Source: a virus
Taxonomy: Duplodnaviria > Caudoviricetes
DNA length: 59,056 nucleotides
Direction: 5' to 3' (one strand)
Virus record (IMG/VR): IMGVR_UViG_3300043395_003306
Span: 1-59,056 of that record
Position numbers and translations under genes: made by a program. This document shows positions 5,483-30,048 of the stretch, piece after piece. Numbering within the stretch: position 1 is the first letter of the stretch; each line of letters opens with the position of its first letter. Below the pieces are notes generated by a model, which was not told where the DNA came from, made no database searches, and worked only from the letters and a program-made list of their open reading frames with translations.

Positions 5483-8400
5483 TTATGCGTAACCCCGGCA
5501 GGAATTAGGGCCTGCGGCTTACGCAGTCCAAATTCTGCTCCGTGCGCAAGCCCCGCCACGTTTGAGCCATGAATATCGGAGGTCCATGCCTGAGACGCCG
5601 CCTCGGTAAACGTGTCCTTGAGTCTGCGGTAGTTGGCGCGAGCAAGGAAGTCCTCAGAGTGGGTCAGAGGAACCTGTTCCATGCTCTTGAGCACGGGCAC
5701 ATGCTCAATCGGCGCAAGACCTTGCTTTTTGGCCTCACGATTTAGGTTTTCAACGTGGTCTAAAGCAATCAGCTGACCACGCAGGTATTCCGGGTGGTCC
5801 GGTGCGTGCTCTACGCGTGCTACGTTAGTCATAGCCTTAACGACAGTCTCAACGTTTCTACGCCGCAGTTTTACGCCAGAGTTACCGTAGGCACTAAGGG
5901 CTTCGTTAGTGAGGTACCCACGAACAGCGTGAATGTTCTTAGTGGCCTCAAGCAACTCATGTGGGTTGATCGGCCCGTGTGACAGGGGATCCCCCGCCTT
6001 AACCTCCAGCCCCGGCTTTACCGTTTCTAGAATATGGCGGTCGGCCAGAATGCGGTGCGCCTTATCGTTGACAAATACGTTGTATCCGCCGCGCGCCTTA
6101 TCCTGCTCGACCTTTGTTACTTTGCCGCTGACGGCCGCAATTGTTGCGGAGCCAGGTAGCGTAGCAGGGACCTTAAAGATTTGCTTCACACGCTCAAATG
6201 CGTCGGCAGTATAGTCCCCACCTTTTTGGGATGAGACGGCTCCGCCGGTGTGGAACGTCTTCATGGCCAGCTGCGTGACCGGCTCTCCAAGGGAGTGACC
6301 CGCAATTACGCCTACGTTTGTACCCACAGAATACGTGTGCCCGTTCTCGTTTAGCCCGTAGCACTTTGCGCAAATGCCTTTCTGCATCTGGCAGTGAAGC
6401 GGCGAGCGCACAATTACCTGAGGAATCTTAGCAACACGAAGTTGCTGGATTACCTGTGATGTCAGAAGGGTGCCCGCAGGTACGTCCTTTCCGCCGGTCA
6501 CATGCACTGGCTGTGCAAGGTACCGGTCATGAACATCGCGGTCGTCGATAGAAAGCGCGGAGCCCTTTGTCGTGTGGCAATCTTCCGCCGTAATTTGGTG
6601 GTCAATTACCGTATTGATGATGACCTTAGACAGGGCGCCAGGCTCTGCCGTGCCTGCCGCACGGTCAATTGCCCCCTTACGAGCACCGTGCATTGAAGTC
6701 CAATACTGGGAGGTAGTGAGCCCCTCTGCGTAGGATTTTGTGATGGGAAGAGCAACTGGGCGGTTCTTTGCGTCAGCAACAAGAATGGGCCCGAAGGTCA
6801 TCTGGCGGAACTGCTCCCAGTTACCGCGGGCCTTTGCAGCAACCCACTCGTACATCTTGTTCTTGCTAGTGCCGTACGCCGCCTCCCCCTTCTTCTTGAT
6901 CTCATCAAGGGCACCGGCGTAGAGCTGTACGATCTTTTGATCCTTCTCTGCCTGAGAAATCTTTGACGAGCGGATTTTCTTTTCCTCGTCCTCGTACTTC
7001 CCAAGAATACTGTCGCGTAACTTGATGGCGTCGTGGAAGTCGTTCAAGGAGAAGGAGCTTCCGTTAAAGTACGCAGCCTTTACGCTGAAGTCCTGTAGAG
7101 ACTTCACGACTCGTGCGTAGTCCTGTTTGTGTTCTTTGGCTACGCGCGTCAACAGGTTTTGCAGAGTTCCCTTGTCGAACCGATAATTTTTATCGTGCAG
7201 AAGCTTTTCGTCGTTCTGCATGTCTGGCGGAAGGAAATGAGCAATAATCGCACGACCAACCGTTGTTTCACGTCCGTGAAATGTGAAAGTCTGGTCTTCG
7301 TGAATCTTTCCATCGTTCCAGAGCTTGTACGCTTCTTCTGCTGAGCCAATCTTTACCTTTGCCGGCTCTCCCCACTTTGTTGCCTGGAACAACCCAATAA
7401 GGAGGTCTTTCTCTGGCATCGGCATGATTTGGCCCGAGGTCGGAGAAAACAGATTGTTTGACGGCATCATTTTCTTGGCATCATTGACCGCTTCGTTGCC
7501 AAGCGGAACGTACAACGCCATGGTGTCGCCGTCGTGGTCCGCGTTGAACCCGGAAGTGACCAGCGGATGCAGGCCGATTGCCTTGCCTTCCGTGATGCGC
7601 GGGGTGAAGGCAAGGATGGAGAACTTATGGAGCGACGGATCGCGCTTTAGAAGAACAGGACGATCAGCAACAACGCGATGTAGAACTTCCACTGCGAAGG
7701 GGTGCTTTTCGTCCACCATCTTCTTGGCTTCGTGGGGGAGGTAGTTGTGGCGGGCATGCAGCTCCTTAACTACGAACGGCTTGTACATCTCAAAGGCGAT
7801 GGGAAGTGGGATCCCGGCCTCGTCTAGACCCAGCTCCGGCGCAGTAATGATCGTAGAGCGGCCCGAAAGGTCTTGGCGGCGATACACAACAGAACTCTGG
7901 AAGTATGAGCCCTTTGTTCCTTCCATCAGCTCCATCAGGCCGCGGTAGTGCCGAGCCTTGGACGACTTCTGTTGAATATCCAGCCCACCTACGCGCAGAG
8001 ACTTCACCGCATCGTACAGGTCTGCAACCTGCCTTTGCTGCGCCGCCTTACCGACGCCTTCTGCCACGTTCTTACGCAGGGACTCGTTTAGAATTCCTAC
8101 ATTCTGGTACAGAAGATTTAGGTCGTCGACGGTCTGAGACCCGTCAGGGTTTACCATCAAAGGACGCATCGTAGGGGGCAGAACCGGTAAGTGCTGCATC
8201 GTATACGCGTCAACAGGCTTGATTCCTGTCTTCTTGAGGGCCTGTAAATACCGAATACGGCGGTACGCCCGGTCTAGCGGCGCGCCTTTTAGCTTCCCAA
8301 TCTGGGAGTTCAGGTCTTTCAGTTCCTTGTCGACGTCAATGTTCTTGAGAGCATCAACAATTACCTCAGTACCCAGTTTCCCACCCTGATGTCCCTCGTG

Positions 8401-11400
8401 CGAGATGAGCTTCTCATACGCCTTTTCATCAATCCCAGTAAGGGACTGGATGGCGCGCTCAAATACGGGGTTGGGTAGGCGGTGGTTGAGGTCGAGGTGC
8501 GTCCAGAAATTACCCTGTAGGCCGCCGGTTAGTTTTTTATCAAACAGACCGCCCTTGTCCTCAATAGTACGGGCCGTGACCTGCTTCAGGTCTCCCTTAA
8601 TTGTGGTCAGCTTGGACGGGGCCGCGAGCTTGCCGGTGCTGAACTTAAGGGTCTGCGCATCTGTAAGCGGCTGAAGAACGTACTTGTCGCCCTTCTTCTC
8701 CATATGCATGCCCATCGCACGCATGTAGTTGATGAACTTCCCCATGCTCTTATTTGGCTTGGGGTCAGGCAGCGGACGGTTTTGCTGAAGAGCTACCCAG
8801 ACATCCGACTGCGACTGGTCGGACTTCCAAGTCTGCGCTTCACGGAGAATGTTTGTCGCCCCGTGCGCCAGAAGAGCGTAAGTCGTAAGCTGGTCAAGTG
8901 TCTGACCGCCGCCGGGAATACCAGACCCACCAGGAGGCTCACCATTAGAGTCATACGCCCCTCCGTGCGAACGGGCTGTCATCTTCTTATCGACTTGATG
9001 GTGAAGCTTTAAAAGGTACTGGTCGCCCGTCAAGATCTGGCCGAGGCTTCTCTTTGTCTTGGGGTCAAATAGTTCTTCGGTGTCAGAGAGCTTGTGCTGC
9101 TTAAGCTCGTCCATGACCTTTTGCGTATAGTCGACACCCGGCTGGAAATTGTCCACGACATACGGCTTTCCAGTCTTGCGCGCAATTTTTGATGCGGCAG
9201 TCTCCAAAAGCTGGCCGATATTCATACGACTTGGGACGCCGGCTGGTCCGAGAATTACATCTACGGGCTTACCGTCCTTATCGTGCGGCATTTCGTGGTC
9301 GGGAAGGATCGTACCGATGATCCCTTTGTTTCCGTAGCGCCCTGTGAGCTTGTCGCCGACGGTAGAGGGCTCCTCTGTACGGACGAAAACCTTTACCGAC
9401 TTACCAGCACGGACAACTTTGGCGACGACTCCGGGGTAATCATGTTCCCAGAATACTGAGCCACGGGTGTCGTAGGGTGTAGCGAGTGATCGTGCGATAG
9501 TCCTCGCCTCATCGCGCGGATCAACGCGAGCAGGCGCAACAACTGCAATAAGGACATCTCCATGCTCTACTCGCTGGCCCTGCTTGATTACTCCATCGTC
9601 TCCCAGCTTATTGACGCGCTGCGCCGTAGCCTTGTCGGGAGAGGAGTACGAAATCCATCGCTTCTTGTCCGTCTGCATCCCAGAGAAAAGCTCTACGCTC
9701 ATTTCGTGAAGGTGGGTAGAGGTCAACTTCTTCGCTGCGGACTCCGACACAACGATTGAATCTTCAAACGTGCGCCCGTGGTACGTCATGTACCCAACAC
9801 GCATGTTGGTGCCAAGAGCTAAACTGCCGTCCCGTGTGTAATTAGAGTCGGCGACAACCTGCCCCTGCTTCACCTTGTCTCCGGCTTTTACAAGCGGGTC
9901 AGAGTGGAGCATGGTCTTTCCGCCGTTTAGCGGGAAATGGTCGTACAGCGCAACCTTGCGTACCTTGCCATCGTCGGCCTTTATATGAATATGCGACTCG
10001 TCTACCTTTGTAACCGTTCCAGCTACCGGGGCCGCGTGTGAGCCAAATGTCCCAACTAACTGGTCAAACGTGTAGTTTGAGTCCGTTTTAGTCTGGACTA
10101 GGGGAGCTTCTCGGTCCTTGAGCGAGATCGCCTGCTCCATTTGCTTTGCCGCAAACATGGCACGGTTGCCCGAGTTTGTAGAAAGAAACGGAACTAAATT
10201 TGCGGCAAATGAAAAGAGCCCCTTTGACGAAGGGAGAACGTACTGCACCTCTGACCAGGGCTTTTGGGCTGTGCGCCGATCCGAGTCAAAGACGGTAACC
10301 ATGTTGCTATTCGGGACAGGCTTTCCATTCTTCCAAGACACCTGATCTGGGTACGCAACTACAGCCTGCTCTAGGGTTCCTGGGGTTGCGTCAACAAAAG
10401 ACCCCTTCTTTACGTCCCACACACGAGTAACAAGCACCTTTCCTTTCTTACGCGCCCCAATTGGAAGGTGGAGAGAGATACCCGTGGCGTCGCTTTCGGG
10501 CGTCTGCACTGGGTCAAGGAAGCCCAAGTGAGATGCGTTGATAAGCTTGTCCTCGGTCTTAATTGTCTCTCCGCCCTTAATACCGCCAAAGTCGGCACCT
10601 AAAATTGTGGTGCGCAAGTGCCCTGAAAGGAACTGTAGTGGGTTCGTCTGCTCCGGAAGTTGCCCGGCGCGAAACGTGTTTCCGATTGTACCTGTGTAGA
10701 GGTCTCGGGCCGGAATCTCAGAAAGCTTAGATGCCCGGTCAATTACCGCGGTGATCTTACGAGTAGCGTCTCGCTGGTTCCGAGTAATGAACCGCTCTAC
10801 GAAATCCGCAGTGCTAGTAATGTCTTTGGCCGCAAGCGTCTGACGGTCGTCCGGCTCTGCGTGTGCGCGAGAGATGTCTAGGATTCTTTTTGACGACGCA
10901 AGCAGCGCGGGGGCAGTAACGTGCCCGAATTCCAGACCAAGCGTGTTGTGCTGGTCCCCGTCTGGGCGCGTTGTCTTCATATCGCTAAACAACTTTGCGA
11001 CGTACGCAGACGCATCCGCAACCGACATAGACGCCGCTTTCTTTTTTTCCTCCGCCGTCTTTGCAAACGTCTTTGGAATCTTAAGTAGGTCTTCGGGCTT
11101 TGCGCGCGCCTTGTTTACCTCGAACACCGTCTTGCCAAACGCCTTTTCAATATCGGCGTCTGACATATTTAGAGACTTGAGTACGGAGTAAACCGGAACG
11201 GTAGACGTACCAATTGCCATCGTGACGCGCCCAGTAGAGCGGTCGATATTTAGGTCGAACCCTTTTTTGCCCTGAAACGCCCAACGTGCCTCAATCTCTC
11301 CGTTGTCCGCGACGCGGTGGTAAACGCCAGGCTTGAGAAGAAAGACGCTGTCGTGTTGCCGCTCGTGACCGTCCACAATGTAGCTATAGCGGCGCGTAAT

Positions 11401-11882: not shown

Positions 11883-11975
11883 ATGCTAAGTCTTTTCTTT
11901 TTCTCGTTTCTTGTGGGGTTCTTCCAATTCTACGTTGACACAATTCCGCAATTGATGGACTCGCGCGCGTGGTAA
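11883..11975 (+). CDS. Hydrophobic 30-aa peptide
   Basis: Starts directly after the previous stop, with GAGGA upstream; MLSLFFFSFLVGFFQFYVDTIPQLMDSRAW*. Confidence 0.4.
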   Translation: MLSLFFFSFLVGFFQFYVDTIPQLMDSRAW

Positions 11976-11998
11976 GAAGAAGCCCGCTTGCCCGCCTA

Positions 11999-12283
11999 AT
12001 GAAAGAGGGGACAGGCGGGCTTCGCCCCGCAGCAGAAATTCCCGACTCGGAAGCGGGAGCGACTGAGGCGACGAAGCTTGCATTTTGTCCCTCTTTATTT
12101 GAAGCAACAGACCGAGGTCTCTGCGGGTTTGTTGCATGCGGAGAGTGCCAGTATGCCCCGGAAGGGCGAGGGTGGCTCTGCGCAACTTGCTCGTGTGAAG
12201 AATCCGTTTTGCCTTACTACACCGAAGGAGCATGCACAAAATGCCAGGGATGGAGCATAGTGCTGAGCCTGTGGAAGAAGTAG
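11999..12283 (+). CDS. Cys-rich hypothetical protein (about 94 aa)
   Basis: CGFVACGEC...CATC...CTKC; start uncertain (GTG 11969 or ATG 11999). Confidence 0.5.
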   Translation: MKEGTGGLRPAAEIPDSEAGATEATKLAFCPSLFEATDRGLCGFVACGECQYAPEGRGWLCATCSCEESVLPYYTEGACTKCQGWSIVLSLWKK

Positions 12284-12705
12284 ATTACCGGTGCGATTGG
12301 TGTGCCACCGCAATCTACACGGGCGATGAGGCCTATAACATTGCCGCTTTTAGTATGGGTATCGGGCACCGAACGGGTAACCTATGCCTAGAAGAAGACT
12401 ACTTTGCGGACGGGGGACACGAGGTGCTCGTCCACAAGTGGTGCTTCCGCGCCGCAGTTAGTTCTAGTCTGCTTGATCACGCATCTAAGCTAAACAACAG
12501 CTGCGCTTGGTGCGACTCGTTGTTTCGCCACAACAACCGAGTAGTTGTTGTGTCGCCGCATCAAGTTCGTATTAGCAAACGGCACGGCGGCGTGTTTCTT
12601 GCCCCATTTCAGTTTCCCCACGGAGATATTGAACGCGTGTTTCACGAAGACTGTTTCGTGCCGCACGCGGAGGGCTTTGCGCACCGCCTTTGGTCTGCCG
12701 CCTAA
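12232..12705 (+). CDS. Tandem CxxC...HxxC zinc-finger protein
   Basis: CDWC...VHKWCF and CAWC...FHEDCF internal duplication; true start may be 12250 or 12271. Confidence 0.7.
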   Translation: MHKMPGMEHSAEPVEEVDYRCDWCATAIYTGDEAYNIAAFSMGIGHRTGNLCLEEDYFADGGHEVLVHKWCFRAAVSSSLLDHASKLNNSCAWCDSLFRHNNRVVVVSPHQVRISKRHGGVFLAPFQFPHGDIERVFHEDCFVPHAEGFAHRLWSAA

Positions 12706-14858
12706 CCAACCTGACGACCCAGTGCCCGCTGAGAACCGCCAGCGGGCACTGGGGCCTTCAGGGCATTCATCGGGTTTACTTGCGACCCCGACTCTTCATT
12801 CATTAGCTGGATGACTAGCTGATACAGCGCAGGGTTCTCGGTGCGCATCTTCATTAGCTCTTGCTGCTTTTGCGCCTCGCCCTGCTCATCGCCAACAGTG
12901 TCAAGGTAGGCCTTAGCACGACGGGCAACGTAACGAAGATCTACGCCGCCTTGTCCAACTGTAAGCGGGGATGACATACCTGCCATAGGTACCGGCAAGT
13001 TTCCGCCCGGAGACCCCGCGTTTTCGTCGTATGCGGTCGCACCCTGCGGCATTCCTGGGGTTTGCTGGGCCTGTTCCGGCGGCTGCTCTTGTTCTTGCGG
13101 TGCAGCCTGTTCTTGGGCAGGCGCTTGCTGCTCTTGCCCCTGTACGGCCGCATTCTGCTGCGCCGCTTCCGGTGTCTGTGCATTTGGTGCACGCTGCGCG
13201 GGAGTAAGAGGAGACTGCGGTTGTCCGCCTTGAGCCGCCGCCTGCTCCGCAGCTTGCTGCTGCTGCACTGCCGCCATTTGCTGCTGCTGCTCCATCTGAG
13301 CTTGCCCCTGAAGGGCCTGGGCCTTGATTGAGTAGCGCGAGGAGCGTAGCTGCGCCTCTCCTTGAATATCTGCGGTAGCCGTCTGCATACGCCGTTGCAC
13401 GTCGAGCTGAATCTTCATCTCCTCGTGCATGCGCTTGACCTCTAGCGCCGTGTCCTCGCCCAGCTCCTCGTGCAGACGCTTGTCGGAAATCTTGAGCGCC
13501 TGATTTAGCTGTAGGTAGAACATAGACCGCTGTAGGTCGTCCGCCATCTTGAAGCGGTCAAAGCGAGAGCTGACCTTGGGCCACCGCATAAAGGCAGCAA
13601 TACCGCCAAAGATGAAGTCATTCACCATGCGGTGCCGCGCACGATTGTACCCCATGAACATGTTCTCTAGGGCGCGCAAAGATGTATTACTTCCGCTCCA
13701 CGAAAGGCCACCAAATACGAACTCGATAGGAATACCGGCACCCACCAGCATTTGCTCCGCGACTAGACGGAACTCCTGGTGCAGCATTAGCGCACGGGCG
13801 TCTCCGCCAAACTGCTGCAACCCGATGTTTACCGGCAGGATGGGGATGTAGTTGTTGTCACGCTTCCAGATAGAGAGTTCGGTCTCAATCTTGGACTTCC
13901 AGTTTGTAAGATTGTACGAACCGTAAGGTTGATCATTACCGCCGGTTGACGGACCAGGGAAGATCATGCGAAGGGGCACAATGTGCTCCATCGCAATACT
14001 CTCTTGTGCTTTCTTTAGCGTCTGAAGGTAGAAGGCGTCCTTGAGGAGCGGGTAGATAAGGGGGGATCCCCAGCCCTGATCCTTCTGCGCCAGCGTAGGA
14101 CGCTTGAGGTGGAAGAAGTTATCTGGACTAAAGCGGAGAGACTTACCCTTACGCGCGGCCTCAAGAAACTCTAGGGGCAGGCGTTCGACCGTCTCCGGAT
14201 CGCCCATCGTAATATCGTTAAGAACTGCGCGAGACAATTTGTAATAGTAGCGCGTAAGGCCTGTAACTTCGTTGTGCTTTATCTGGATGTTTTCTGGGTT
14301 CCAGCGCACTAAACGAATGTCACGTACAGAACGAATGTATACATCTCGCTCTTCTGCATAGTCTGCCTTGCGGCAGCTTGGGCAGCTAAGATGAAAACGG
14401 TTGTTCTTCCATCGATATAGCGAGCGATTTGCGTCCGCACGGTAGCGTTCCTTGCAGTGCCGACACGCAAGGTACTTCACAAATGGGTAGTAAACCGAGA
14501 CAAACGCGTTTCCGTACGCGAAGTAGTCTAGCCCGGCTTCTACTTGGAACTGCCGGAGATTAAGCTGCTCCTCTAGATCCTGATACAGCCTCCGCTTACC
14601 GGGGTCGTCTGTGTCAAAGATAATAGGAGTAACGGGGTACTCCGCCATCTTTGTACATGCGACGTTGATAATTGGGTTTGACAGGAAGTAGTAACGACAC
14701 CAATTTAAAAGCTGGTGTACGTTGTCGGGTAAGAACTGCTGCGCAACATCAAAGAATGGCGACGGGTAGCGAACACCAAAGCTACGCTGCCCGCTACTTT
14801 GAAGATTTCGGGTGTTAAACCGGTCCCCAGAATCTACCGATGCACTAAAGAAGTTCAT
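12702..14858 (-). CDS. Putative portal protein with Zn-ribbon insertion and Gln/Ala-rich tail (718 aa)
   Basis: WCRYYFLSNPIINVACTKMAEYP, RWNPENI, FFHLKRP, GWGSPLI and GIPIEFVFG resemble phage portal proteins. Confidence 0.7.
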   Translation of the reverse strand: MNFFSASVDSGDRFNTRNLQSSGQRSFGVRYPSPFFDVAQQFLPDNVHQLLNWCRYYFLSNPIINVACTKMAEYPVTPIIFDTDDPGKRRLYQDLEEQLNLRQFQVEAGLDYFAYGNAFVSVYYPFVKYLACRHCKERYRADANRSLYRWKNNRFHLSCPSCRKADYAEERDVYIRSVRDIRLVRWNPENIQIKHNEVTGLTRYYYKLSRAVLNDITMGDPETVERLPLEFLEAARKGKSLRFSPDNFFHLKRPTLAQKDQGWGSPLIYPLLKDAFYLQTLKKAQESIAMEHIVPLRMIFPGPSTGGNDQPYGSYNLTNWKSKIETELSIWKRDNNYIPILPVNIGLQQFGGDARALMLHQEFRLVAEQMLVGAGIPIEFVFGGLSWSGSNTSLRALENMFMGYNRARHRMVNDFIFGGIAAFMRWPKVSSRFDRFKMADDLQRSMFYLQLNQALKISDKRLHEELGEDTALEVKRMHEEMKIQLDVQRRMQTATADIQGEAQLRSSRYSIKAQALQGQAQMEQQQQMAAVQQQQAAEQAAAQGGQPQSPLTPAQRAPNAQTPEAAQQNAAVQGQEQQAPAQEQAAPQEQEQPPEQAQQTPGMPQGATAYDENAGSPGGNLPVPMAGMSSPLTVGQGGVDLRYVARRAKAYLDTVGDEQGEAQKQQELMKMRTENPALYQLVIQLMNEESGSQVNPMNALKAPVPAGGSQRALGRQVG
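13060..13330 (-). repeat. Low-complexity Gln/Ala/Pro-rich coding tract (CAG-rich)
   Basis: QQQQMAAVQQQQAAEQAAAQ...APAQEQAAPQEQEQ in the portal C-terminal region. Confidence 0.7.
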
Positions 14859-17480: not shown

Positions 17481-18887
17481 ATGAACATGAAGGTGCCCCG
17501 ACTCGACCCTGAAAAGGCCTACATCGGGGCGTCATTGTTTCTTCCTCTATCCAAAGTAGCAGAGGGCCCCGTTCGCGGGGCCCTCACGTTTGGCCTAGAC
17601 CGAAACAATGAGCCCAGGGTTTTAGTCAAAAATCACCCGCACCATATTGAAGTGCCTCGGGCTTTTCTTACCACTCAGCAGTTAAAAGAGGAATTAGAGA
17701 TTGAGGTCGTAGACCTTCGCCCAAAGAATTTCCCACGGTCTAGTCTACGACCTAAACCTGGCTTTTCTCTGCGGGATCGACAACTAGATCCTTGGGCAGC
17801 CTACAAGGACGCCAAGGGCGGGGTTCTTCATTTACCCTGCGGAGCCGGCAAGACCATCATGGGTCTTTATAAGGCGGCGCATGAAGGCCTCTCTACTTTG
17901 ATTGTCTCGCCGCAGGCGGCGCATCTAGACAACTGGATGTCAGAGCTGAAAGATCATTTTCTTCTCGACTCAACGCCTGGTCGTATCGGTGACGGGAAGA
18001 TGGAGTACGACAGGGAAATTGTTCTCTGCACCGTTCAGACGCTTGCGATGCGAGCAGAGGATGGGCAGCTTCCCATAGATTTTGCCTCTCGATTTGGGAC
18101 CATCATCTTTGACGAGACGCACCACATGAGCGCGGAGTTCTTTGCGCGCAGCATCGATATCTGCCTCGGTAACCGCTACGGCCTCACTGCTACGCCCAAA
18201 AGAACAGATCGCAACGAGGGCGTATTCCTCTCGCACATCGGTCCTATTCTCTACAGCGACGACACGCAGGAGATGATCCCAGAGATAGAGGTCATTGAGC
18301 TAGAGACGGAACTTACGTCTGCGGATGAGCGCACCGTTAGCGACCGAAGCGGGCAAAGAAACCTTGCAATGCTGAAGACTTGGCTTGCTCAGAATACCGA
18401 GCGGAACGACGCCATAAGGCGTCGCCTGCAAAAAGCCGTAGCTGAGGGTCGTACCATCTATGCCCTGAGCCACAGCGTCGAGCATGTGAAGGCGTTGTCC
18501 GCCATGTTTCCGGGCAGCGGCTTGATCACCGGGGAAACGCCCAGCGCAGAGAGGCTCAAGGAGCTGAACAAAAGCAAGATTGTCTTTGCGACGTTCGGAG
18601 TGGCAACCGAGAACTACAATCGCAAAGACTTAGACTGCCTGTTTATGCTCACGCCTCTGGCGGCAGATGGTTACGCAGAGGCCCCTCAACTGCGCCAAGC
18701 AATTGGCCGTGTTCAGCGTGCCGCAGACGGAAAGAAAACCCCCGAGGTCATCATCTTCCTTGATCGGAACATTGATGAATGTCGGGGCCTTACCTACAGC
18801 GTTTTGAACTACTTGAAATCTAAGAACTACCCGTTCAGGAACTCGACATGGAACCAAAAGCGTCGCAATCCGATGGTGCGTACCTGA
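17481..18887 (+). CDS. Superfamily II helicase (UvsW/XPB-like, 468 aa)
   Basis: LPCGAGKT (Walker A), DETHH, LTATP, QAIGRVQR. Confidence 0.92.
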   Translation: MNMKVPRLDPEKAYIGASLFLPLSKVAEGPVRGALTFGLDRNNEPRVLVKNHPHHIEVPRAFLTTQQLKEELEIEVVDLRPKNFPRSSLRPKPGFSLRDRQLDPWAAYKDAKGGVLHLPCGAGKTIMGLYKAAHEGLSTLIVSPQAAHLDNWMSELKDHFLLDSTPGRIGDGKMEYDREIVLCTVQTLAMRAEDGQLPIDFASRFGTIIFDETHHMSAEFFARSIDICLGNRYGLTATPKRTDRNEGVFLSHIGPILYSDDTQEMIPEIEVIELETELTSADERTVSDRSGQRNLAMLKTWLAQNTERNDAIRRRLQKAVAEGRTIYALSHSVEHVKALSAMFPGSGLITGETPSAERLKELNKSKIVFATFGVATENYNRKDLDCLFMLTPLAADGYAEAPQLRQAIGRVQRAADGKKTPEVIIFLDRNIDECRGLTYSVLNYLKSKNYPFRNSTWNQKRRNPMVRT

Positions 18888-19210
18888 AGAACCTTACGGT
18901 CTTCATGTACAACAACCGATGTTTCTTGGGGCTGTGGTGCGATGCCCACAGCACGGAAGACGTGATGAAGCGCGGCATCAACGTCCTTGACGCCATTGAG
19001 TTACGAATTCAAATGGCCGGTGACCCTCGCCAGCCGGTCATGCAAGTTGCGCCAAGTCCCGTAGTTCCGGCAAACAAGCCGATCACAATGTGGCTTCCGC
19101 CCTGCGCGCATTTTGCTGTTGAAGACCACAAGGACTTTATCGACATCTACCGCGCCATGACCGGACGTTCGGGGCTGGTGCTTCCTGCTCCTGGGATCTC
19201 GTTCAAATGA
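18848..19210 (+). CDS. Hypothetical protein (120 aa)
   Basis: In operon; ATGA overlap with the UDG gene. Confidence 0.65.
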   Translation: MEPKASQSDGAYLKNLTVFMYNNRCFLGLWCDAHSTEDVMKRGINVLDAIELRIQMAGDPRQPVMQVAPSPVVPANKPITMWLPPCAHFAVEDHKDFIDIYRAMTGRSGLVLPAPGISFK

Positions 19211-19959
19211 GCGTTCGAGGACTTGAGGCGCTGGAGAACTTGTTTGAGGATTACGCAGACTGCACTCGCTGCGGTCTTTGCGAAAAGAGGACGCAGGTCG
19301 TCTTTGGGAGTGGGTCGGTCAGCGCAAACATCCTTGTCGTCGGGGAAGCCCCCATCGAAGAAGACGAAGCGCACGGCGTGCCTTTTATGGGCAAATCAGG
19401 GCGCCTATTCATGGACATGCTTGCGATGATCTGGCCGGACACGGAAGAAATGGCCCGTTTACGCAATTATGATTCTGAGGATAATCAGGGATATTTCATC
19501 GACCTGCGCGAGTACCTTGACCGGCACATCTTCTGGACGAGTATTGTGTCCTGTCGTCCCCCAGAAGGGCGTCAGCCGTCAAACGCGGAGATCACCGCTT
19601 GCTACGACCGGCTGCGCGGAATCATCTACGCAGTAGACCCGATGATCATCATTGCGCTGGGGAAAACGGCGGCCTCTACGGTGGTCGGAAAAACGGTTCA
19701 AGTTACGGACAAAAGAGGTACGATCTTCGACGTAACCGTCGATAGCCCCGTGACAGGGCAACCCGTTCGGTACGCGATGGCGGCCCTGCTGCATCCGAGT
19801 TTCTTGCTGAGAAAGGGAGATCAGTCCCTTGTTGCTGAGAAGAAAGGAGAGACCTACAAAACTCTTCAAGATTTGAAGTACATCTTGTCGCTATTAGACG
19901 CGGAATACAAAGACGCCTACGGACAGGCATTTCCATACCGCAACGAGGAAGCACCATGA
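19207..19959 (+). CDS. Uracil-DNA glycosylase family 4-like (Fe-S) protein (250 aa)
   Basis: CTRCGL, VVFGSG, VGEAP, PFMGKSG, CRPP...EITAC, LHPS. Confidence 0.9.
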   Translation: MSVRGLEALENLFEDYADCTRCGLCEKRTQVVFGSGSVSANILVVGEAPIEEDEAHGVPFMGKSGRLFMDMLAMIWPDTEEMARLRNYDSEDNQGYFIDLREYLDRHIFWTSIVSCRPPEGRQPSNAEITACYDRLRGIIYAVDPMIIIALGKTAASTVVGKTVQVTDKRGTIFDVTVDSPVTGQPVRYAMAALLHPSFLLRKGDQSLVAEKKGETYKTLQDLKYILSLLDAEYKDAYGQAFPYRNEEAP

Positions 19960-20393
19960 ACGACGAACTCTCAAACACTATTGCGATGCTGGTTGATTTT
20001 GTTGAGGAGCGAAACCTCATCCTCAGCGAGATCCGCGAGGCTCACTCTGAAGACTTTGAGCGCATCGACTACTTGAACGAAGAAATTGCCCGAGTCCGAA
20101 AGCTGACGGAAGACCTACTCCGGCAGGGCAAGAAGACGGTTGAAGCTGGTGGGTACACCTTCCAGGTCAAGCCTTACAAGAAGACCGTCATCGACCGCGC
20201 CAATCTCATCGAGAAGGCACGGGAGCGCGGGGAGCTGTCGCGCCTTGTTGAAGACTTCGGGATGGTCTACTACGACGTAAATCCTGACCAGCTTGCGCGT
20301 CTGCCGGACGACATGAAGGCTGTTTACGCAGACTTTATCCGAGTTGAGGAAGACACCCCGAGGGTCTACATGCCCTCGGGCCTGAAGCAGTGA
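19956..20393 (+). CDS. Hypothetical protein with coiled-coil N-terminus (145 aa)
   Basis: GAGGA SD; coupled overlaps with neighbours. Confidence 0.7.
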   Translation: MNDELSNTIAMLVDFVEERNLILSEIREAHSEDFERIDYLNEEIARVRKLTEDLLRQGKKTVEAGGYTFQVKPYKKTVIDRANLIEKARERGELSRLVEDFGMVYYDVNPDQLARLPDDMKAVYADFIRVEEDTPRVYMPSGLKQ

Positions 20394-20725
20394 TTGTAGG
20401 ACGGCTCCGCCACGATGTACGCGTGGCGGGGCTTCCCGATCTCGTCTCAGAACAAAACCTCAAAGCGGAGGATCTACACGTGCCAAAAGACATGTTGAAG
20501 AGTCTTGATGATGCAGGTGCGGCACGCGTGACCATCTCTATGGAGATGAAGGACAACGACTACGGTCGTGGTTTTGGCGCGTTTGCTTCCGTGTCCCTGG
20601 CTTGCCGCCAAGACCAGTTCACAGTCCAGCAGGCGTACGCAGAGGCGTCTGACTTAGCTGCGGCTTTTGTACATGAAGCCTTTCTACTTGCTGAAGAGCG
20701 CTACCGAGACCTGAGGTCAAAGTGA
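20390..20725 (+). CDS. Hypothetical protein (111 aa)
   Basis: GTGA overlaps at both ends. Confidence 0.65.
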   Translation: MIVGRLRHDVRVAGLPDLVSEQNLKAEDLHVPKDMLKSLDDAGAARVTISMEMKDNDYGRGFGAFASVSLACRQDQFTVQQAYAEASDLAAAFVHEAFLLAEERYRDLRSK

Positions 20726-21018
20726 AACGCTCGCTCTCGGAAAACGGGCCTGCAACCTTGGTTGTTAATGAAATTTCGGTGACTCGACTTCCTACTGGTC
20801 TCGTTTCGGTTCAGGCGAGATACACTGTGGACCTCCGCACCGAGGAGTTCTCCGGCTCTGTCGGTGTAGGGTCTACAACCATCTCCGATGACGATCTCAT
20901 CCAGATGGTTGATGAGGCGATGACGGCAATCCAGAACCGGATCAACTCTGCAGTTGGTCTGGCTGCGCCGGATATTGCCGCTACTGTGGAAACCCCGGAA
21001 CAAGATTGGGAGCTTTGA
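20722..21018 (+). CDS. Hypothetical protein (98 aa)
   Basis: GAGG SD, GTGA overlap, abuts the DnaB gene. Confidence 0.65.
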   Translation: MKRSLSENGPATLVVNEISVTRLPTGLVSVQARYTVDLRTEEFSGSVGVGSTTISDDDLIQMVDEAMTAIQNRINSAVGLAAPDIAATVETPEQDWEL

Positions 21019-22419
21019 GTGAACGTCGAACTCGAACTGATCTCAAATATTGTTGACCGTGGCGACTTCAGCGTTGTGCGTAAGAAGGGGATCACCCCCG
21101 ATACGTTCAACACGGAAGAAGCGCGCACGGTCTTTCGCTGGCTTTGGGACGAGTTTCACTCGCCCGCACACCCCGGAGAAGTCCCTGACAAGGACCGGCT
21201 TCGGCGTAAATTCCCGAACTTTGACTACCGCCCAACGCGGAACAGCATTGAAGCGATCACGCTCGACGTGCTCTCCAACAAGATGCGGAATGAGCTTCAG
21301 CTCATCACGCTTGAGGTTGAGGAGCTGCTTGCGGCGGGAGAAGATCCCTTCCTTGTGTTGACGGCGTTCCTCCCTAGGATGCGCGACCTCAACAGTTCGT
21401 CCGCTGACACGGATGGTCTGTTGATGGCAAGTTCTGCGGCTCTGCTTCGACAGGAGTACGAGACAAAGAACCTTGCCGGCGGTATCACGGGCATCCCGTA
21501 TCCTTGGGATCCCCTGAACGTTGCGACTTGCGGGATGCAGCCGGAAGAACTGCTGGTTCTTTACGGACGCCCAAAGAACATGAAGTCTTGGCTTGCCCTC
21601 GCCATGGCAGTCCATGCCTACGAGAGCAACCGTCGAGTGCTCGTCTACTCCAAGGAAATGTCTAAGGAGCAGACCCTTCGTCGTGCTGCGTCGATTCTGT
21701 GCAAGATTGACTACGAGCTTCTTCGCACGGGAAACCTGCATCCGCAGAAGGCCCAGGAGTTCTTTGAGTTCCTTGAAGATCTCGTAAACCTTGAGAACAT
21801 GGCGCAGAACGGTCAGCGCAAGCGTTCGCTTATGTTTGTCGGCGACGCCGACAAGAAGGGCGGTACGGTTGACTCGTTGGCTGCCAAGGCAGAGCGTTTT
21901 GGTGCAGACCTTGTCGTGGCGGACGCGTTCTACCTGATGCGTGACGGTAGAACAAATACGCGAACTGCTGACTGGAAGAATATTGCACACATCAGCCAAG
22001 ACCTAAAGCTCATGGCCCGTGCGCTGAAAATTCCAGTTCTCGGTACAACACAGGCAAACCGTAACGCAAATGCGTCTCACGGCGATGACCTTTCTGAGCT
22101 TGCCGGTTCTGACGCAATTGGTCAGGATGCCGACCTTGTCATGCGGTGTTTTCGCGGTCGCGGTCCGACGGGACGCTCTGCGGTAATGTTGACGTTCCCA
22201 GGTATTCGTGAGGCACAGCTGAATCCGTTTTTGGTAAATGCTGTGCCGGGTACGGATTTCTCGTTGCTCCAAAATAGCGTCGATGTCGCTGCGTTCCTCA
22301 AGGACAAGCGAGCCATGGACCAGGAAGACGAGAATAAGAACCCCAACGGTGCCGCTCCGGGTGGTCGCCCTGCGCAGGGTCAAAAGCGTCCACCTAGGAC
22401 GCCAATGTTCCGCGTATGA
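21019..22419 (+). CDS. dnaB: Replicative DNA helicase, DnaB-like (466 aa)
   Basis: GITGIPYPW, GRPKNMKS (Walker A), SKEMS, VVADAFYLM (Walker B), ISQDLKLMA, TQANR, SDAIGQDAD. Confidence 0.92.
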   Translation: MNVELELISNIVDRGDFSVVRKKGITPDTFNTEEARTVFRWLWDEFHSPAHPGEVPDKDRLRRKFPNFDYRPTRNSIEAITLDVLSNKMRNELQLITLEVEELLAAGEDPFLVLTAFLPRMRDLNSSSADTDGLLMASSAALLRQEYETKNLAGGITGIPYPWDPLNVATCGMQPEELLVLYGRPKNMKSWLALAMAVHAYESNRRVLVYSKEMSKEQTLRRAASILCKIDYELLRTGNLHPQKAQEFFEFLEDLVNLENMAQNGQRKRSLMFVGDADKKGGTVDSLAAKAERFGADLVVADAFYLMRDGRTNTRTADWKNIAHISQDLKLMARALKIPVLGTTQANRNANASHGDDLSELAGSDAIGQDADLVMRCFRGRGPTGRSAVMLTFPGIREAQLNPFLVNAVPGTDFSLLQNSVDVAAFLKDKRAMDQEDENKNPNGAAPGGRPAQGQKRPPRTPMFRV

Positions 22420-23495
22420 GCAACGGCCCGGTTGTCGATGAGATCGCCAAGTACGTCACCGGGCTAAAGAAAGGCGCAGGCAATAACTGGATGGGTTTCT
22501 GCCCCATTCACGGAGAGCAAGCGGGAAAGAGTAAGCCCTCCTTCAGCCTCAACGCAGCAACAGGCATGTGGTACTGCTTTGCTGGGTGTGGCGGAGGAGG
22601 GCTTCCTACTTTTCTGAAGCTTCTCGACGTTCCCCGTCCGCGCGTCGATACGCTGATGGAGAAGTTGCGGCCTCACCTTACAACGGTGGAAAAGAGGGCC
22701 GACCTGACACAGGCAAAGAACCTGTTTCAGACCCCGTACCCCCTGCCCGAGAAACTGCTTGGTATTTACGAAGAGTGTCCCGTCTCCCTGATCGAGGCCG
22801 GCTTCACAGAAGAAACTCTGTGGACACACGATGTGGGATTTGATGAAGAGCAGCAACGGATCACGTTCCCCATCAGGGACCTGAACGGAACCCTTGCCGG
22901 TATCTCTGGTCGTGACGTCACCGGGCGTGCGGCGGAGAAGTACAAAGTTTATCAGCGAGAGCTGCAAGAGATCGGGTTTAAGAACTATAAACTAGAGAAG
23001 GGCAATTACCTGTACCGCTGGGAGCGGGTCTACCAAAACGTGTACGCAAATCCTGACCGCCCGCCTGTCTACATCACAGAGGGATTCAAGGCGTGCCTGT
23101 GGATGGTGCAGAACGGCTTCCCAAATACTGTGGCCCTCATGGGCTCCAGCATGACCGACGTACAGAAGATGTTCATTGAGAGGTTGGGAGGACCTGTGGT
23201 CCTGTGCCTAGACAACAATTCTGCGGGTATTAAAGGTACCGCCAGAATAGGTTATAGGCTATCTGGAGCCCGCATCTTAGTGATGCGGTATCCGCCTGAC
23301 GTTCAGCAGCCCGATGGGCTATCTGCCGAAGCTTTACAGGACGCTGTTCAAAGGGCTTTGTCCCTAACTACATGGAGCAAACAACATCATGAATCGAACG
23401 TCATTCCGCGCTTCCGTTATGGGCGAGCGCAAAGAGAAGAACGGGAAGGGTTGGCGCGGGTCTTTCCGAGACCGCCTCGATATCCCCAAGGATGA
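22416..23495 (+). CDS. dnaG: DNA primase (CHC2 zinc finger plus TOPRIM)
   Basis: CPIH...PSFS...WYCFAGC, RITFPIRD, ITEGFKA, LCLDNN. Confidence 0.92.
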   Translation: MSNGPVVDEIAKYVTGLKKGAGNNWMGFCPIHGEQAGKSKPSFSLNAATGMWYCFAGCGGGGLPTFLKLLDVPRPRVDTLMEKLRPHLTTVEKRADLTQAKNLFQTPYPLPEKLLGIYEECPVSLIEAGFTEETLWTHDVGFDEEQQRITFPIRDLNGTLAGISGRDVTGRAAEKYKVYQRELQEIGFKNYKLEKGNYLYRWERVYQNVYANPDRPPVYITEGFKACLWMVQNGFPNTVALMGSSMTDVQKMFIERLGGPVVLCLDNNSAGIKGTARIGYRLSGARILVMRYPPDVQQPDGLSAEALQDAVQRALSLTTWSKQHHESNVIPRFRYGRAQREEREGLARVFPRPPRYPQG

Positions 23496-24552
23496 GGCTA
23501 CGCCCATCCTGGTCCTTCGCGGCACTTATCAGGATCCCCGTGGCAAGCAGCAGGGGGAGTTGGCGTACCACCCGCACACGGTTCACTCGCTGAAGTTGGC
23601 GGCGTCGGGTCCCGGTTCGTTCCGTGAGATCCCCTGCGCGGGCAAGGACTGCGTTGGTTGCTACGCAAAGGACGGCGGAGATCCCCGCGTCACGACGCGT
23701 GAGAAGTTTGCGCTGAACGTGTTGCACCTCTCGCTGTACCGCAAGGAGCCCATCAAGGACAAGGATGGGAAGGTGCTGACCTACAGCGAAGACGGCAAGG
23801 ACCACCGTCGCGGAGACGCGGTGATGGGTTGGAACGAGGTGACGGGCCGTAAGGACCGCAAGGACATTACTGCTGCCGCCGAGCGTGGCGATGTTCCTGA
23901 GGACGTTGCGCTGTACCGCCGTAAGTACCTCGACCTGGGCCGCAACCACCTTGAAGCCCTCATGGCGATTGACGAGCTTGCGGCAAAGAACTGCTTCTGC
24001 GGCGGTTCCCTTGCTCCGACGGCGTTCCACTGCGAGAGCTGCGACGAGCTTCTGTGCGATGTGGAGAACTCCAACATGACCTCTAAGCAGGTCAACGAGT
24101 ACTCCAGCAGCCGGCAGCGTTGCGGTTCCTGTGGGCATCTCGGCTTCACAAAGATCATCACGATCTGTGATAGCTGCGATGAGCCGTCTCCGATGAGCGT
24201 GTTTGATGTAGTTGCCTATGTCCGTAAGCACGGCGAAGCCACCGCGTCGACCATCATGGTTGAGAAGATCCAGCCCCTTACCGAGTTCACCCTCGCCAAT
24301 GGCGCGGCACTCGTGAAGGACTGGAACGTTGATGCTTCTGGCGTTGTCCCAGTCTGGGCTGACGACGTGGCCCCGTCCATGACGCAGTTCGATTTCGAGC
24401 AGGTGTTCGGCGCGCAGGATGCTGCGTACGTCTCCTCTTTGCTCGGAATTCAGAACCCATTTGGTGGACCTGCTCCGCAGCAGACGCGCCCCTACGGTGG
24501 CGGTGGTGGACAGCAGGGCGGGCCGGCTGGCGCTCGCCGTTTTGGCCGCTAA
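23389..24552 (+). CDS. Putative single-stranded DNA-binding protein with zinc ribbons (387 aa)
   Basis: Lies between primase and polymerase; CAGKDCVGC plus four further Cys pairs; Gly/Gln tail; GGAG SD; followed by a terminator-like hairpin. Confidence 0.5.
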   Translation: MNRTSFRASVMGERKEKNGKGWRGSFRDRLDIPKDEATPILVLRGTYQDPRGKQQGELAYHPHTVHSLKLAASGPGSFREIPCAGKDCVGCYAKDGGDPRVTTREKFALNVLHLSLYRKEPIKDKDGKVLTYSEDGKDHRRGDAVMGWNEVTGRKDRKDITAAAERGDVPEDVALYRRKYLDLGRNHLEALMAIDELAAKNCFCGGSLAPTAFHCESCDELLCDVENSNMTSKQVNEYSSSRQRCGSCGHLGFTKIITICDSCDEPSPMSVFDVVAYVRKHGEATASTIMVEKIQPLTEFTLANGAALVKDWNVDASGVVPVWADDVAPSMTQFDFEQVFGAQDAAYVSSLLGIQNPFGGPAPQQTRPYGGGGGQQGGPAGARRFGR

Positions 24553-24580
24553 TTAGCGCGAACGCACAATTGTGCTGACA

Positions 24581-24603
24581 GCCGGGAAAGACCGGCATTT
24601 TTT
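24581..24603 (+). terminator. Rho-independent terminator
   Basis: GCCGG-gaaaga-CCGGC followed by ATTTTTT. Confidence 0.6.
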
Positions 24604-24619
24604 ATCTCGGAGGGTAAGC

Positions 24620-27037
24620 GTGCCTAATCACGGCTATCAGTTCGTTAAGACGCCGGACCCTATCTACGTCTCCACAGTGGAGGACGCAGAATACTGGGCT
24701 GCCCGTTACTTGGCAGTCGATTCGGTCGCATTTGACACAGAGACAACGGGACTCAGCAAGACTGACGCCCGGATTAAGTTCTTTTCGTTTTCAGACGGCG
24801 CAAGCCGAATTGCTGCGCCAGTACGGCTGCTAGATGTGTTTGCTCCGGTCCTTACCAACCCAAATATCGAAAAGAAAATGGCTAACGCCAAGTTCGATAT
24901 TCACATGTGCGCCAATCACGGAATCCTCATCCAAGGGAACGTGATTGATACGGTTCATATGAGCTGGCATTACGATGAGAATCGCCAGGGCCAGCACGGG
25001 TTGAAGGAGTGTTCTCGCGAGTTTCTTGGGCTGCGAATGGCCCCGTTTACCGAAGTATTCGGGAAGATTGGCAGGAAGAATGACGAGGTTGCGGCTGTCT
25101 GTGCGTTCCACGATGTGATCGAAGCACAGGACACGGAGGAGGCGTCAGAAATCCTTGTGTCGCTAAAGCGGGCCGAGGGCGATGAGGATGTACTAAACAG
25201 CCTCAAGAAACTCTCGCTTGCAAAGCAATCTGGAGAGCCGCTGCCTCTTAAGAAGTTGTTGGCAATGCTTCGTCTGCACGAGCTGGTCGAACGTAGCACT
25301 GTCCGTAAATACGCTTCTACGGTTGAGGTCTACCGATTCTTGGGCGTTGAGTTGGCTCCGGCGGACTACGCTCGTGCCGAGATAGACCTAGAGACATACG
25401 AGCGCAGTATTGCAGCAGAGGTCGAAGCACTCCTGCGTCTCAAGCTGATGCAGCAAGTACGCGTCGATAGCGACCCGCTCGACATGCTCACTCTGATGGT
25501 TGCTGACTACGCGTCTCTTGACGCGTGGGCAACCTATGAGGTCGCTGATGTGCTTACCGAAGAGCTTACGGCAATTGACGAGGGCAACGGCAGCATTCTT
25601 ATTGATCGCTACCGCCGCGTTGCTGCTCCGTTCCTGCGTGTGTTGTGGAATTGTGAACGTCGTGGGTTCCCCATCGACCTACAGCAAATTCGCACCTACG
25701 CAACACAAATGAAGAAGGACATTGAGGCCATTGAGCGGCGCGTTGTGAAACTGACAAAGGATCCCAACGTAAATCTCAACAGCCCTATTCAACTGCGCAA
25801 ACTGTTCTACACACAGAGCAGCACTGGATGGTTTGATCCGTTTGGAGAGGTGCCTACGCGGTGGACCAGCGGAGGAGAATCGGGGGACAAACTTCCCTCG
25901 ACAGATTCCGAAACCCTAGAAGGGTGGGCAGAGCGCGGCAACCTACTTGCGCAGGAAATTATCAAGCACCGTGAGCTTACGAAATTGGAAGGCACGTACT
26001 TCTCCGGCCTGCCGGAGTGGGTTGATTTCCGAAATCGAATTCACACGGACTTGAAGGCGCACGGAGCGCGTACTGGGCGACTTTCTTCGGGTGACCCGAA
26101 CTTACAGAACATCCCCGCAAAGGGAGACTGGGGTCGAGTCATCCGTAAGTTGTTCATCGCAGGCAAGTGGGGCGACTGCGACCCGTCATGGTGTATGCCG
26201 GAGGTTGCGGACATCCCTGTTCCTGTTTTGCCCGATGACACGCCCATGACGCTAATCGTTGCTGACTACGATCAGCTAGAGGTCAAGATTGCGGCGCACG
26301 TCAGCGGAGATCCGACGCTCATCGATACTCTACGTAAGGGTCTCGATGTTCACTCCAAGACCTCCGCAAGCCTTACGGGAATTCCTTACGAGGACTTTAT
26401 TGCTGCCAAGAAGGCGGACAACCCGACGCCGGAACAAGAGAAGCTGATCGACATTCGTTCTGGAAACAAGAGCGCACTGTTCGGCATTTTCTACGGTATT
26501 GGCGCGGTAAAGCTTGGCACGCAGCTTGGTAAGCCCATCAATCGGGTCAAGCAGCGTAATGGGAAGGTCCGAGAGACCTGCCCGGAGGCTCAGGCAATTA
26601 TTGACGGGGTATTCGCAGTTTACCCCGGCCTGAAGGACGCCATCGACGCCACGCACACCGAGTGCATGGAGAAGCTGTACGTCCAGACAATCACGGGTCG
26701 TTTCCGCCGGCTGCCGGATATTATCTCGGACGACCGTATGGTTGCCTCGCAGGCAGAGCGTCAGGCGTTTAACTCGCGCATCCAGGGTTCGGCTGCTGAC
26801 GTTGCGCAGGCTGCGATGCTCAAATGCGAGCGCGACCCTTACCTTCGTGAGTTTGGGGCGCGGATGCTTCTACAAATTCACGACGAGTTGGTGTTCGAGG
26901 TGCCGGATATCCCTGAGTACGTTGCTGCTGCAAAAGAGCGCATCAAGTACCTCATGGAGCATCCGTTTGACTCCGACCTTCTTGTGCCGCTGACTGTTTC
27001 CATCCACGCAGCAAAGACGTGGGGAGACGCGAAGTGA
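24620..27037 (+). CDS. polA: DNA polymerase family A with 3'-5' exonuclease (about 805 aa)
   Basis: FDTETTG, NAKFD, YASLD exonuclease motifs; TGRLSSGDPNLQNIP, DYDQLE, KSALFGIFYG, QIHDEL; start re-called to GTG 24620 after GGAGG. Confidence 0.96.
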   Translation: MPNHGYQFVKTPDPIYVSTVEDAEYWAARYLAVDSVAFDTETTGLSKTDARIKFFSFSDGASRIAAPVRLLDVFAPVLTNPNIEKKMANAKFDIHMCANHGILIQGNVIDTVHMSWHYDENRQGQHGLKECSREFLGLRMAPFTEVFGKIGRKNDEVAAVCAFHDVIEAQDTEEASEILVSLKRAEGDEDVLNSLKKLSLAKQSGEPLPLKKLLAMLRLHELVERSTVRKYASTVEVYRFLGVELAPADYARAEIDLETYERSIAAEVEALLRLKLMQQVRVDSDPLDMLTLMVADYASLDAWATYEVADVLTEELTAIDEGNGSILIDRYRRVAAPFLRVLWNCERRGFPIDLQQIRTYATQMKKDIEAIERRVVKLTKDPNVNLNSPIQLRKLFYTQSSTGWFDPFGEVPTRWTSGGESGDKLPSTDSETLEGWAERGNLLAQEIIKHRELTKLEGTYFSGLPEWVDFRNRIHTDLKAHGARTGRLSSGDPNLQNIPAKGDWGRVIRKLFIAGKWGDCDPSWCMPEVADIPVPVLPDDTPMTLIVADYDQLEVKIAAHVSGDPTLIDTLRKGLDVHSKTSASLTGIPYEDFIAAKKADNPTPEQEKLIDIRSGNKSALFGIFYGIGAVKLGTQLGKPINRVKQRNGKVRETCPEAQAIIDGVFAVYPGLKDAIDATHTECMEKLYVQTITGRFRRLPDIISDDRMVASQAERQAFNSRIQGSAADVAQAAMLKCERDPYLREFGARMLLQIHDELVFEVPDIPEYVAAAKERIKYLMEHPFDSDLLVPLTVSIHAAKTWGDAK

Positions 27038-27324
27038 CGCACGACGACCTAGTACGTCGCATGGTGAAGAAGTCGGGCTACCCAGAACGGGTAGTCCGGC
27101 ATCTTCTTCAGGCACAGATTGAGGTACTGAAGGACGCGCTAATTGCCCAAGAAAAGATAGTATTTCGCACTCTTTTCCACGTTCATACGCAGGAGCGGGT
27201 TATGTCCGTTGCTGCTCCGGGTAAACCTCGCAGAAAGGTGAAAAGGTTAGTACTCTATGTACGACCCTACGCGAGCTTCCGTAAGCTCCTGAACCAGTGG
27301 GGTTCCGAGGTAGACGATGGATAA
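27034..27324 (+). CDS. HU/IHF-like DNA-binding protein (96 aa)
   Basis: MTHDDLVRRMVKKSG...LKDALIAQEKIVFRTLF...VRPYASFRKLLN follows the HU pattern; GTGA overlap with polA. Confidence 0.7.
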   Translation: MTHDDLVRRMVKKSGYPERVVRHLLQAQIEVLKDALIAQEKIVFRTLFHVHTQERVMSVAAPGKPRRKVKRLVLYVRPYASFRKLLNQWGSEVDDG

Positions 27325-27496: not shown

Positions 27497-27522
27497 GAGC
27501 CGTCCCTCCACTCGGAGGTATC

Positions 27523-30046: not shown

Positions 30047-30048
30047 CC

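Follow-up and report, generated by a model that had tools for sequence, protein, structure and literature searches.

A recurrent histidine in the NADFDGD loop of a single-chain RNA polymerase from an uncultured tailed phage

The stretch of DNA analysed here (the window, 59,056 nucleotides) encodes a complete beta-beta' fusion RNA polymerase in which the catalytic loop, NADFDGD in cellular enzymes, reads NADHDGD. The His at residue 1383 is fixed in the clade to which the window belongs and has replaced Phe repeatedly elsewhere in the same phage family. We conclude that the window polymerase is a known enzyme type with a recurrent single-residue variant and not a new type of active site, as phage multisubunit polymerases of this type are already on record in the accessible parts of two published studies (PMC7481178, PMC10585845). 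The reading that we prefer, and that we hold to be reasonably probable, is that of an active polymerase in which His stands in for the bulky residue flanked by the first two aspartates and hardly affects the chemistry.

The fused polymerase and its catalytic residues

The polymerase gene is an intact open reading frame of 2067 codons (Table 1). In its product, Pfam recognised Rpb2_6 at residues 554-908 (E 3.8e-63, 214 bits) and, in the beta' half, Rpb1_2 at residues 1323-1406 (94.6 bits) and Rpb1_5 at residues 1654-1959 (89.5 bits), all three over their cut-offs; Rpb1_1, Rpb2_3, Rpb2_7 and Rpb1_3 scored under theirs. A PHROG search led to RNA polymerase beta families. Because the beta domains lie in the first half and the beta' domains in the second, the protein represents a complete beta-beta' fusion, and profiles thus recognise both the beta-type and the beta'-type domains of a two-barrel polymerase. 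Thousands of the homologues found by searching are likewise fused, at about 2050-2120 aa each. The best matches among proteins of solved structure are bacterial beta subunits (E 4.6e-49). The domain order and the catalytic residues are the same as in cellular RNA polymerase, exemplified by E. coli; however, the cellular enzyme consists of two polypeptides and carries Phe461, whereas the window enzyme is one polypeptide and carries His instead.

Table 1. Positions of the polymerase gene, its motifs and the neighbouring genes in the window
Feature	Coordinates	Strand	Evidence
Complete beta-beta' fusion, multisubunit-type RNA polymerase gene, 2067 aa	5479..11682	-	intact ORF, Pfam, PHROG
Mg-A loop NADHDGD, N1380-D1386	7525..7545	-	codon translation
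His1383 codon CAC	7534..7536	-	codon translation
beta TFEDS, residues 638-642: acidic pair E640/D641, then S642	9757..9771	-	family alignment
beta GDKLTGRYGNKGIIG, residues 776-790: invariant K778 and K786, then G790	9313..9357	-	family alignment
beta GGQTLDQLT, residues 925-933, family counterpart of cellular GGQRFGEME	8884..8910	-	alignment
beta' KRDPSLHK, including R1347 and P1349	7624..7647	-	R1347 and P1349 each in 240/240 family rows
Presumed bridge-helix segment ARKGAIDRA, residues 1667-1675	6658..6684	-	assigned by motif
Presumed trigger-loop segment KTFHTGG, residues 1808-1814	6241..6261	-	assigned by motif
Portal protein homologue, 718 aa, upstream of the polymerase gene	12702..14858	-	BLASTP against the Arash portal, 29% identity, E 2e-83
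Small ORF between portal homologue and polymerase gene	11886..12239		

Eight residues are reported to be invariant in two-barrel polymerases, namely the DxDxD triad, one beta Asp, two beta Lys spaced eight apart and the beta' Arg-x-Pro, and the Phe of NADFDGD is not among the eight as given in the accessible part of that study (PMC2919709). All eight are present in the window protein (D1382, D1384, D1386, D641, K778, K786, R1347 and P1349), matched to the yeast residues by motif and spacing. In a 240-row alignment of the family, D1382, D641, K778, R1347 and P1349 are each conserved in 240 of 240 rows, K786 in 239 of 239, D1384 in 239 of 240 and D1386 in 234 of 240. In E. coli the corresponding elements are numbered beta' 458-NADFDGD-464, beta E813/D814 and beta K1073 in the sections available to us of two further sources (PMC13198411, bioRxiv 10.1101/2024.06.20.599782).

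The codons on the minus strand (7545..7525) are AAC GCG GAC CAC GAC GGC GAC, so that His stands at 1383 where the canonical motif has Phe. The initial annotation had read these codons in the same way, had pointed out that CAC differs from TTC at two bases, and had listed the three Mg-binding Asp, the beta catalytic Lys and the trigger-loop His (KTFH) as kept, all of which we confirm; both lysines fall within GDKLTGRYGNKG, and the His belongs to KTFHTGG, which we take by its motif to be the trigger loop, as we take ARKGAIDRA to be the bridge helix.

The same annotation had counted the drift of the beta GGQRFGEME motif to GGQTLDQLT, placed at about 8887-8910, among the signs of a remodelled catalytic centre. 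The drift is present (8910..8884), but it is a property of the whole family, whose consensus at residues 924-942 is GGQ-[KSAR]-[ILM]-[GD]-x-L-x-x-Y-A-L-L-A-H-G-A, compared with GGQRFGEMEVWALEAYGA in bacterial beta; the cellular form GGQRFGEME..WALEAYGA is thus matched by GGQTLDQLT..YALLAHGA near the C-terminus of the beta part of the window protein. The drift is also seen in the Phe-bearing majority and is unrelated to the His.

The gene is under strong purifying selection. Compared with five clade members at 84-89% amino-acid identity, dN/dS was 0.042-0.048; compared with the more distant locus L071 (67% identity) it was 0.144. In these comparisons dS was saturated, at 1.8-2.5. The presence of every reported invariant residue, together with dN/dS values of 0.04-0.05, argues for an active enzyme, as had been proposed from the sequence at the outset, and we infer that the window polymerase is active.

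Histidine in the phage family, in cells and in metagenomes

His is fixed in the window's clade, which comprises P0001, P0003-P0005, L071 and further loci from other assemblies, with members 67-93% identical. Three of these, the protein clusters P0003, P0004 and P0005 from other sources, are 87-93% identical to the window protein in the searched region, and L071 is the deepest member (support 100). His was also read in the viral contig L033 and in the metagenome loci L060, L071, L088, L090, L095, L096 and L112. The alignment of homologues that had been proposed as a check on the annotation therefore showed His to be clade-wide around the window, and the position to be variable outside the clade.

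To describe this variability, 263 non-identical homologues were aligned to the query (the 120 best from one search, and the best 150 of about 13,380 from another), with the query's own duplicate (P0002) excluded. At the equivalent of position 1383, Phe accounts for 240 of these proteins, His for 10 and Asn for 4; Leu, Val, Ile and Tyr were each seen twice and Met once. His is thus the commonest replacement of Phe, and Leu and Tyr, which are both single-step mutational intermediates between TTC and CAC, occur in the family. In conservation the column ranks 281st of 1973. A FastTree phylogeny was built without the trait column from the 231 rows with at least 1400 aligned residues (1972 columns; 32 shorter rows were left out), and on this tree the position underwent at least 17 changes among the eight residues used in the family, seven of them between Phe and His. 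His occurs in seven places, each beside a Phe sister; since P0020 is separated from the window clade by a weak node (0.19), a conservative count of His origins is six. A tree of 240 rows, with nine rows added, gave ten changes between Phe and His. We conclude that His has arisen separately about seven to ten times on the family tree.

Two further features of the family alignment concern the region of the loop. Asn replaces the third Asp (column 1386) in 6 of 240 rows and the second Asp (column 1384) in 1 of 240; at least one of these cases (P0210) lies at an insertion junction, and some of the substitutions may reflect misalignment or an intein rather than a dead enzyme. Many relatives (P0040, P0044, P0049, P0097, P0218 and others) carry an insertion, probably an intein, directly after the NADFDGD loop, at the equivalent of window residue 1386/1387; matches to the beta' half break there, at residue 386/387 of that query. 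These relatives are 2400-3700 aa long, match Pfam PF14528 or PF14890, and continue as ...DGDQQ, ...DGDSC or ...DGDSIKGR; the window's own gene has no insertion after NADHDGD.

Beyond the family, genomes, viral contigs and metagenome contigs were scanned with the back-translated pattern [F/Y]NADHDGD, in which the preceding Phe or Tyr was required and Ala was coded as GCN only, so that all counts are lower bounds. Among species-representative genomes (185,579 species, one genome each) there were 25 matches, of which three lie in RNA polymerase genes, all of them archaeal rpoA' (L003, L012 and L017); the other 22 are unrelated proteins or out of frame. The three archaeal genomes are 0.7-0.9 Mb in size with one match apiece, and in L017 the motif lies, according to Pfam, inside an rpoB''-B'-A'-A'' operon. 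Among 61 genomes sampled from the order of L017's genome, 54 matched a free-codon pattern, with TTY in 53 of the 54 and CAC only in L017's genome. Because only three RNA polymerase genes matched and TTY was found in 53 of 54 genomes of that order, Phe can be called nearly invariant in cellular RNA polymerases, as the initial annotation had held, and His is a rare derived state in cells, one that a sole cellular polymerase can live with.

The archaeal RpoA' proteins, from small DPANN-type genomes, share the NADHDGD loop with the window polymerase and are otherwise canonical. The archaeal enzyme is cellular, encoded by several genes (B'', B', A', A''), and belongs to a lineage unrelated to the window polymerase. 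In the rpoB' of these archaea (L017:1680-3485, and L003), GYNMQDA stands at the expected acidic pair, which is Gln-Asp and not Glu-Asp, so that one acid of the Mg-B region is altered.

Among viral contigs, seven of ten pattern matches were RNA polymerase-like. From metagenome contigs, 40 of the 80 listed matches (of 85) align as RNA polymerases with His at the catalytic column, and the other 40 gave no alignment to the query; the RNA polymerase-like loci, at least 40 in number, span 26 distinct 18-residue contexts. NADHDGD was also seen in RNA polymerase large-subunit genes with a eukaryote- or archaea-style context (...PYNADHDGDEMN...), namely L030/L046 (a 155 kb viral contig), L062, L074, L113 and L127, which are possibly genes of large eukaryotic viruses. 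A word-index search with 40 residues around the motif, intended to enrich for His proteins, yielded six proteins, all of them already known.

No part of the transcription machinery is more conserved than the loop that holds the catalytic Mg, and in phage enzymes the single position of this loop that is not a ligand can vary freely; His is favoured there among the replacements for Phe, and at least one free-living lineage uses it. The family thereby offers a natural mutagenesis series for the role of Phe461, with His, Asn, Tyr, Leu, Ile, Val and Met in their respective beta backgrounds. The string 'NADHDGD' returned no paper in the literature searched, nor did we find a published role for the Phe of NADFDGD in that literature, which included the accessible portions of PMC2919709, PMC13198411 and bioRxiv 10.1101/2024.06.20.599782.

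Association with two beta positions and the reading of the variant

We compared one representative per His lineage (n = 7) with 210 Phe rows over 1972 columns by Fisher tests; the columns discussed here were picked post hoc. The strongest association with His was that of Gly790, found in 6 of the 7 His lineages and in 8 of 209 Phe rows (p 1.5e-7); Ser642 came next, in 5 of the 7 lineages and in 7 of 210 Phe rows (p 4.1e-6). Position 642 is Gly in 193 of 210 Phe-bearing members of the family, and position 790 is Thr, Ser or Val in most of the family and Gly in the window. Residue 642 directly follows the beta acidic pair (TFED-S), and 790 lies four residues after the second invariant Lys (GNKGII-G). 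From the motifs, an alignment to solved structures and the numbering in the available parts of PMC13198411 and bioRxiv 10.1101/2024.06.20.599782, the two positions would correspond in E. coli beta to the residue after D814 and the residue four after K1073.

His lineages that lack Ser642 have Ala at 642 with Gly or Ala at 790, whereas the Phe sisters of six of the seven His lineages have Gly642 with Thr, Ser, Val or Ala at 790. The exception is the window clade, which suggests that there the Ser-Gly background preceded His, because the sister (P0007) is Phe-Ser-Gly. Among phylogenetically independent pairs of the first set, 5.9 of 7 showed a background change concordant with His, none a discordant one, and 1.1 no change (median p of the sign test, 0.031). 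Coupling was also seen between positions 642 and 790, with 12 of 20 independent pairs changing in the same way and none in the opposite way (p about 5e-4).

As the columns had been chosen after seeing the data, loci that had not been used in finding the pattern served as an out-of-sample test. The deepest clade member (L071, H-S-G) and the archaeal enzymes (H-A-G), which have Ala/Gly at the equivalents of 642/790 akin to the His background, are consistent with it. However, a well-supported clade of six loci (L051, L077, L063, L092, L093 and L098) reads H-G-A/T/S, L065 reads H-G-T beside an F-G-T sister, L056 reads H-G-G with only the Gly at 790, and L044 reads H-A-V; three further origins of His lack the full pair of changes at 642 and 790. 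A three-way coupling of 1383, 642 and 790 as a rule was dropped because of these out-of-sample lineages, and the combination of His with G642S and T/S790G is therefore a tendency of the window's subfamily and not a requirement for His.

The preferred reading takes the window polymerase to be an active, single-polypeptide, two-barrel DNA-dependent RNA polymerase of an uncultured tailed phage, in which His1383 would stand in for the sole bulky residue, itself not a ligand, that separates the first and second Mg-binding aspartates. Phe or His would act there as a packing residue, and His would be a fixed, selectively maintained and tolerated variant that leaves the chemistry largely or wholly unchanged. 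Some local backgrounds may make the replacement easier; in the window's subfamily these are Ser or Ala at beta 642 and Gly or Ala at 790, two mutually coupled positions that would adjoin the beta acidic pair and the catalytic Lys. Of the remodelled catalytic centre that the initial annotation had proposed, little is left: the GGQ change is family-wide, and the Phe position accommodates eight residues with 17 changes on the 231-row tree, so that the free variation among homologues that had been named as evidence against remodelling was in part observed. What remains in favour of a local re-packing is that His is associated in the window's subfamily with two beta positions by the Mg-B acidic pair and the catalytic Lys.

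Positive selection, and not tolerance alone, could lie behind the recurrence of His (7 of the 17 changes) and behind its association with beta 642 and 790 in the window's subfamily. His1383, Ser642 and Gly790 might then form an alternative configuration that re-packs the Mg-A/Mg-B neighbourhood and has been selected repeatedly. It is consistent with this that Gly790 and Ser642 are the top His-associated residues among 1972 columns and both lie in beta active-site motifs, that all seven first-set His lineages have Phe sisters, six of them with the ordinary background, that 642 and 790 change together, and that His is the commonest replacement; yet the columns were picked post hoc, the out-of-sample loci named above break the pattern, and on the combined 240-row tree the background changed in the same way in 5.6 pairs, in the opposite way in none, and showed no difference in 3.3 of about 9. 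Moreover, Phe occurs on the Ser-Gly background in five rows (P0007, P0061, P0073, P0215 and P0219), so that this background does not require His. We regard such repeated selection as possible but rather unlikely, and we hold the same view of the altered property that it would entail, for example in metal preference, pH profile, rate, fidelity, or sensitivity to a host or small-molecule inhibitor. A bolder version, in which NADHDGD with Ser642/Gly790 would be a convergent second solution for packing the metal pocket, reached by several phage lineages and one DPANN lineage and conferring a different catalytic property, seems to us decidedly doubtful; if it were true, metal or pH dependence, for instance, would be changed, or the enzyme would resist active-site inhibitors.

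A decaying or catalytically dead homologue, recruited for a structural role in the virion, would agree with the great abundance of the homologous protein in virions of phage Arash, as reported in the accessible part of PMC10585845, and with the departure of the beta GGQ motif from its cellular form, but it is very improbable given that the invariant catalytic residues, the presumed bridge helix and the trigger-loop His are all kept and that dN/dS is 0.04-0.05 across all 2067 residues. A sequencing or assembly error with TTC as the true codon, judged unlikely in the initial annotation, can be ruled out, as TTC to CAC takes two base changes and separately assembled relatives from several sources agree on His, with neighbouring codons that differ synonymously (in L033, CAC is unchanged beside GCA for GCG and GAT for GAC).

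Known relatives and genome context

The window is an IMG/VR virus record with a CheckV completeness estimate of 32%, and its polymerase is identical to a 2067-aa polymerase encoded on a contig of 168,138 bases; the window is a fragment of an uncultured tailed-phage genome whose full size is probably about 170 kb. The assignment to tailed phages follows because the window encodes a portal homologue, a baseplate wedge/J domain and replication genes, in addition to its origin as an IMG/VR virus record. Uncultured tailed phages, some of them exceeding 200 kb, in which standard profiles detect homologues of beta and beta' were described as mReC by Weinheimer & Aylward (2020), whose screen required 'NADxDGD' and thus permitted variation at the Phe position, according to the portion of the paper at hand (PMC7481178). 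The window agrees with this description in being a contig of a tailed phage that encodes homologues of beta and beta' and has an NADxDGD motif. The available text of that paper uses the term fusion only for the crAssphage enzyme, whereas the window enzyme is a complete beta-beta' fusion; we found no mention of His at the Phe position in that text (PMC7481178).

The closest cultured relatives, at 29-32% identity, are found in Salmonella phage Arash and Vibrio phages D69, D148 and D181; for Arash Gp206/Gp216 and D69 VPHD69_0261/0264 this identity extends over 71-95% of the query. Arash and D69 share with the window the order of portal, small ORF and RNA polymerase, so that the window combines homology to Arash with the portal-polymerase gene order of the Arash virion RNA polymerase. 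They differ in having the enzyme as two proteins, of about 1525 aa and about 600 aa, with the break behind the N-terminal part of beta'; in Arash one protein holds beta with the N-terminal part of beta' and another the C-terminal part of beta', whereas the window enzyme is a single chain. They also differ in the loop, which in Arash (L133) and D69 (L134) reads AADYDGD, so that Tyr takes the Phe position and Ala the Asn position, in contrast to NADHDGD in the window; the Asn of NADFDGD contacts the substrate ribose in bacterial RNA polymerase. In the part of the report available to us, no protein was more abundant in purified Arash virions than Gp206, the larger piece of the enzyme, which accounted for 3516 spectra (PMC10585845). 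By analogy with Arash, the window enzyme is probably packaged in the virion, from where it would transcribe the early genes; this is an analogy only, because the identity to Arash is just 29-32% and the enzyme is split differently.

Elsewhere in the window, three large open reading frames lie on the minus strand. One of 1904 aa (33843..39557) had no match in Pfam, PHROG or the sequences of solved structures (PDB), one of 1571 aa (40362..45077) begins with an N-terminal PKD domain, and one of 1995 aa (45353..51340) carries an N-terminal baseplate J/wedge domain. On the plus strand, 17481..31114 is a replication and recombination module by Pfam and PHROG, including a helicase, a UDG-family protein, a DnaB-like helicase, a primase, a family A DNA polymerase with a 3'-5' exonuclease domain, a RecA-like protein, a PD-(D/E)XK nuclease and two resolvase-type proteins; RusA is also encoded in the window.
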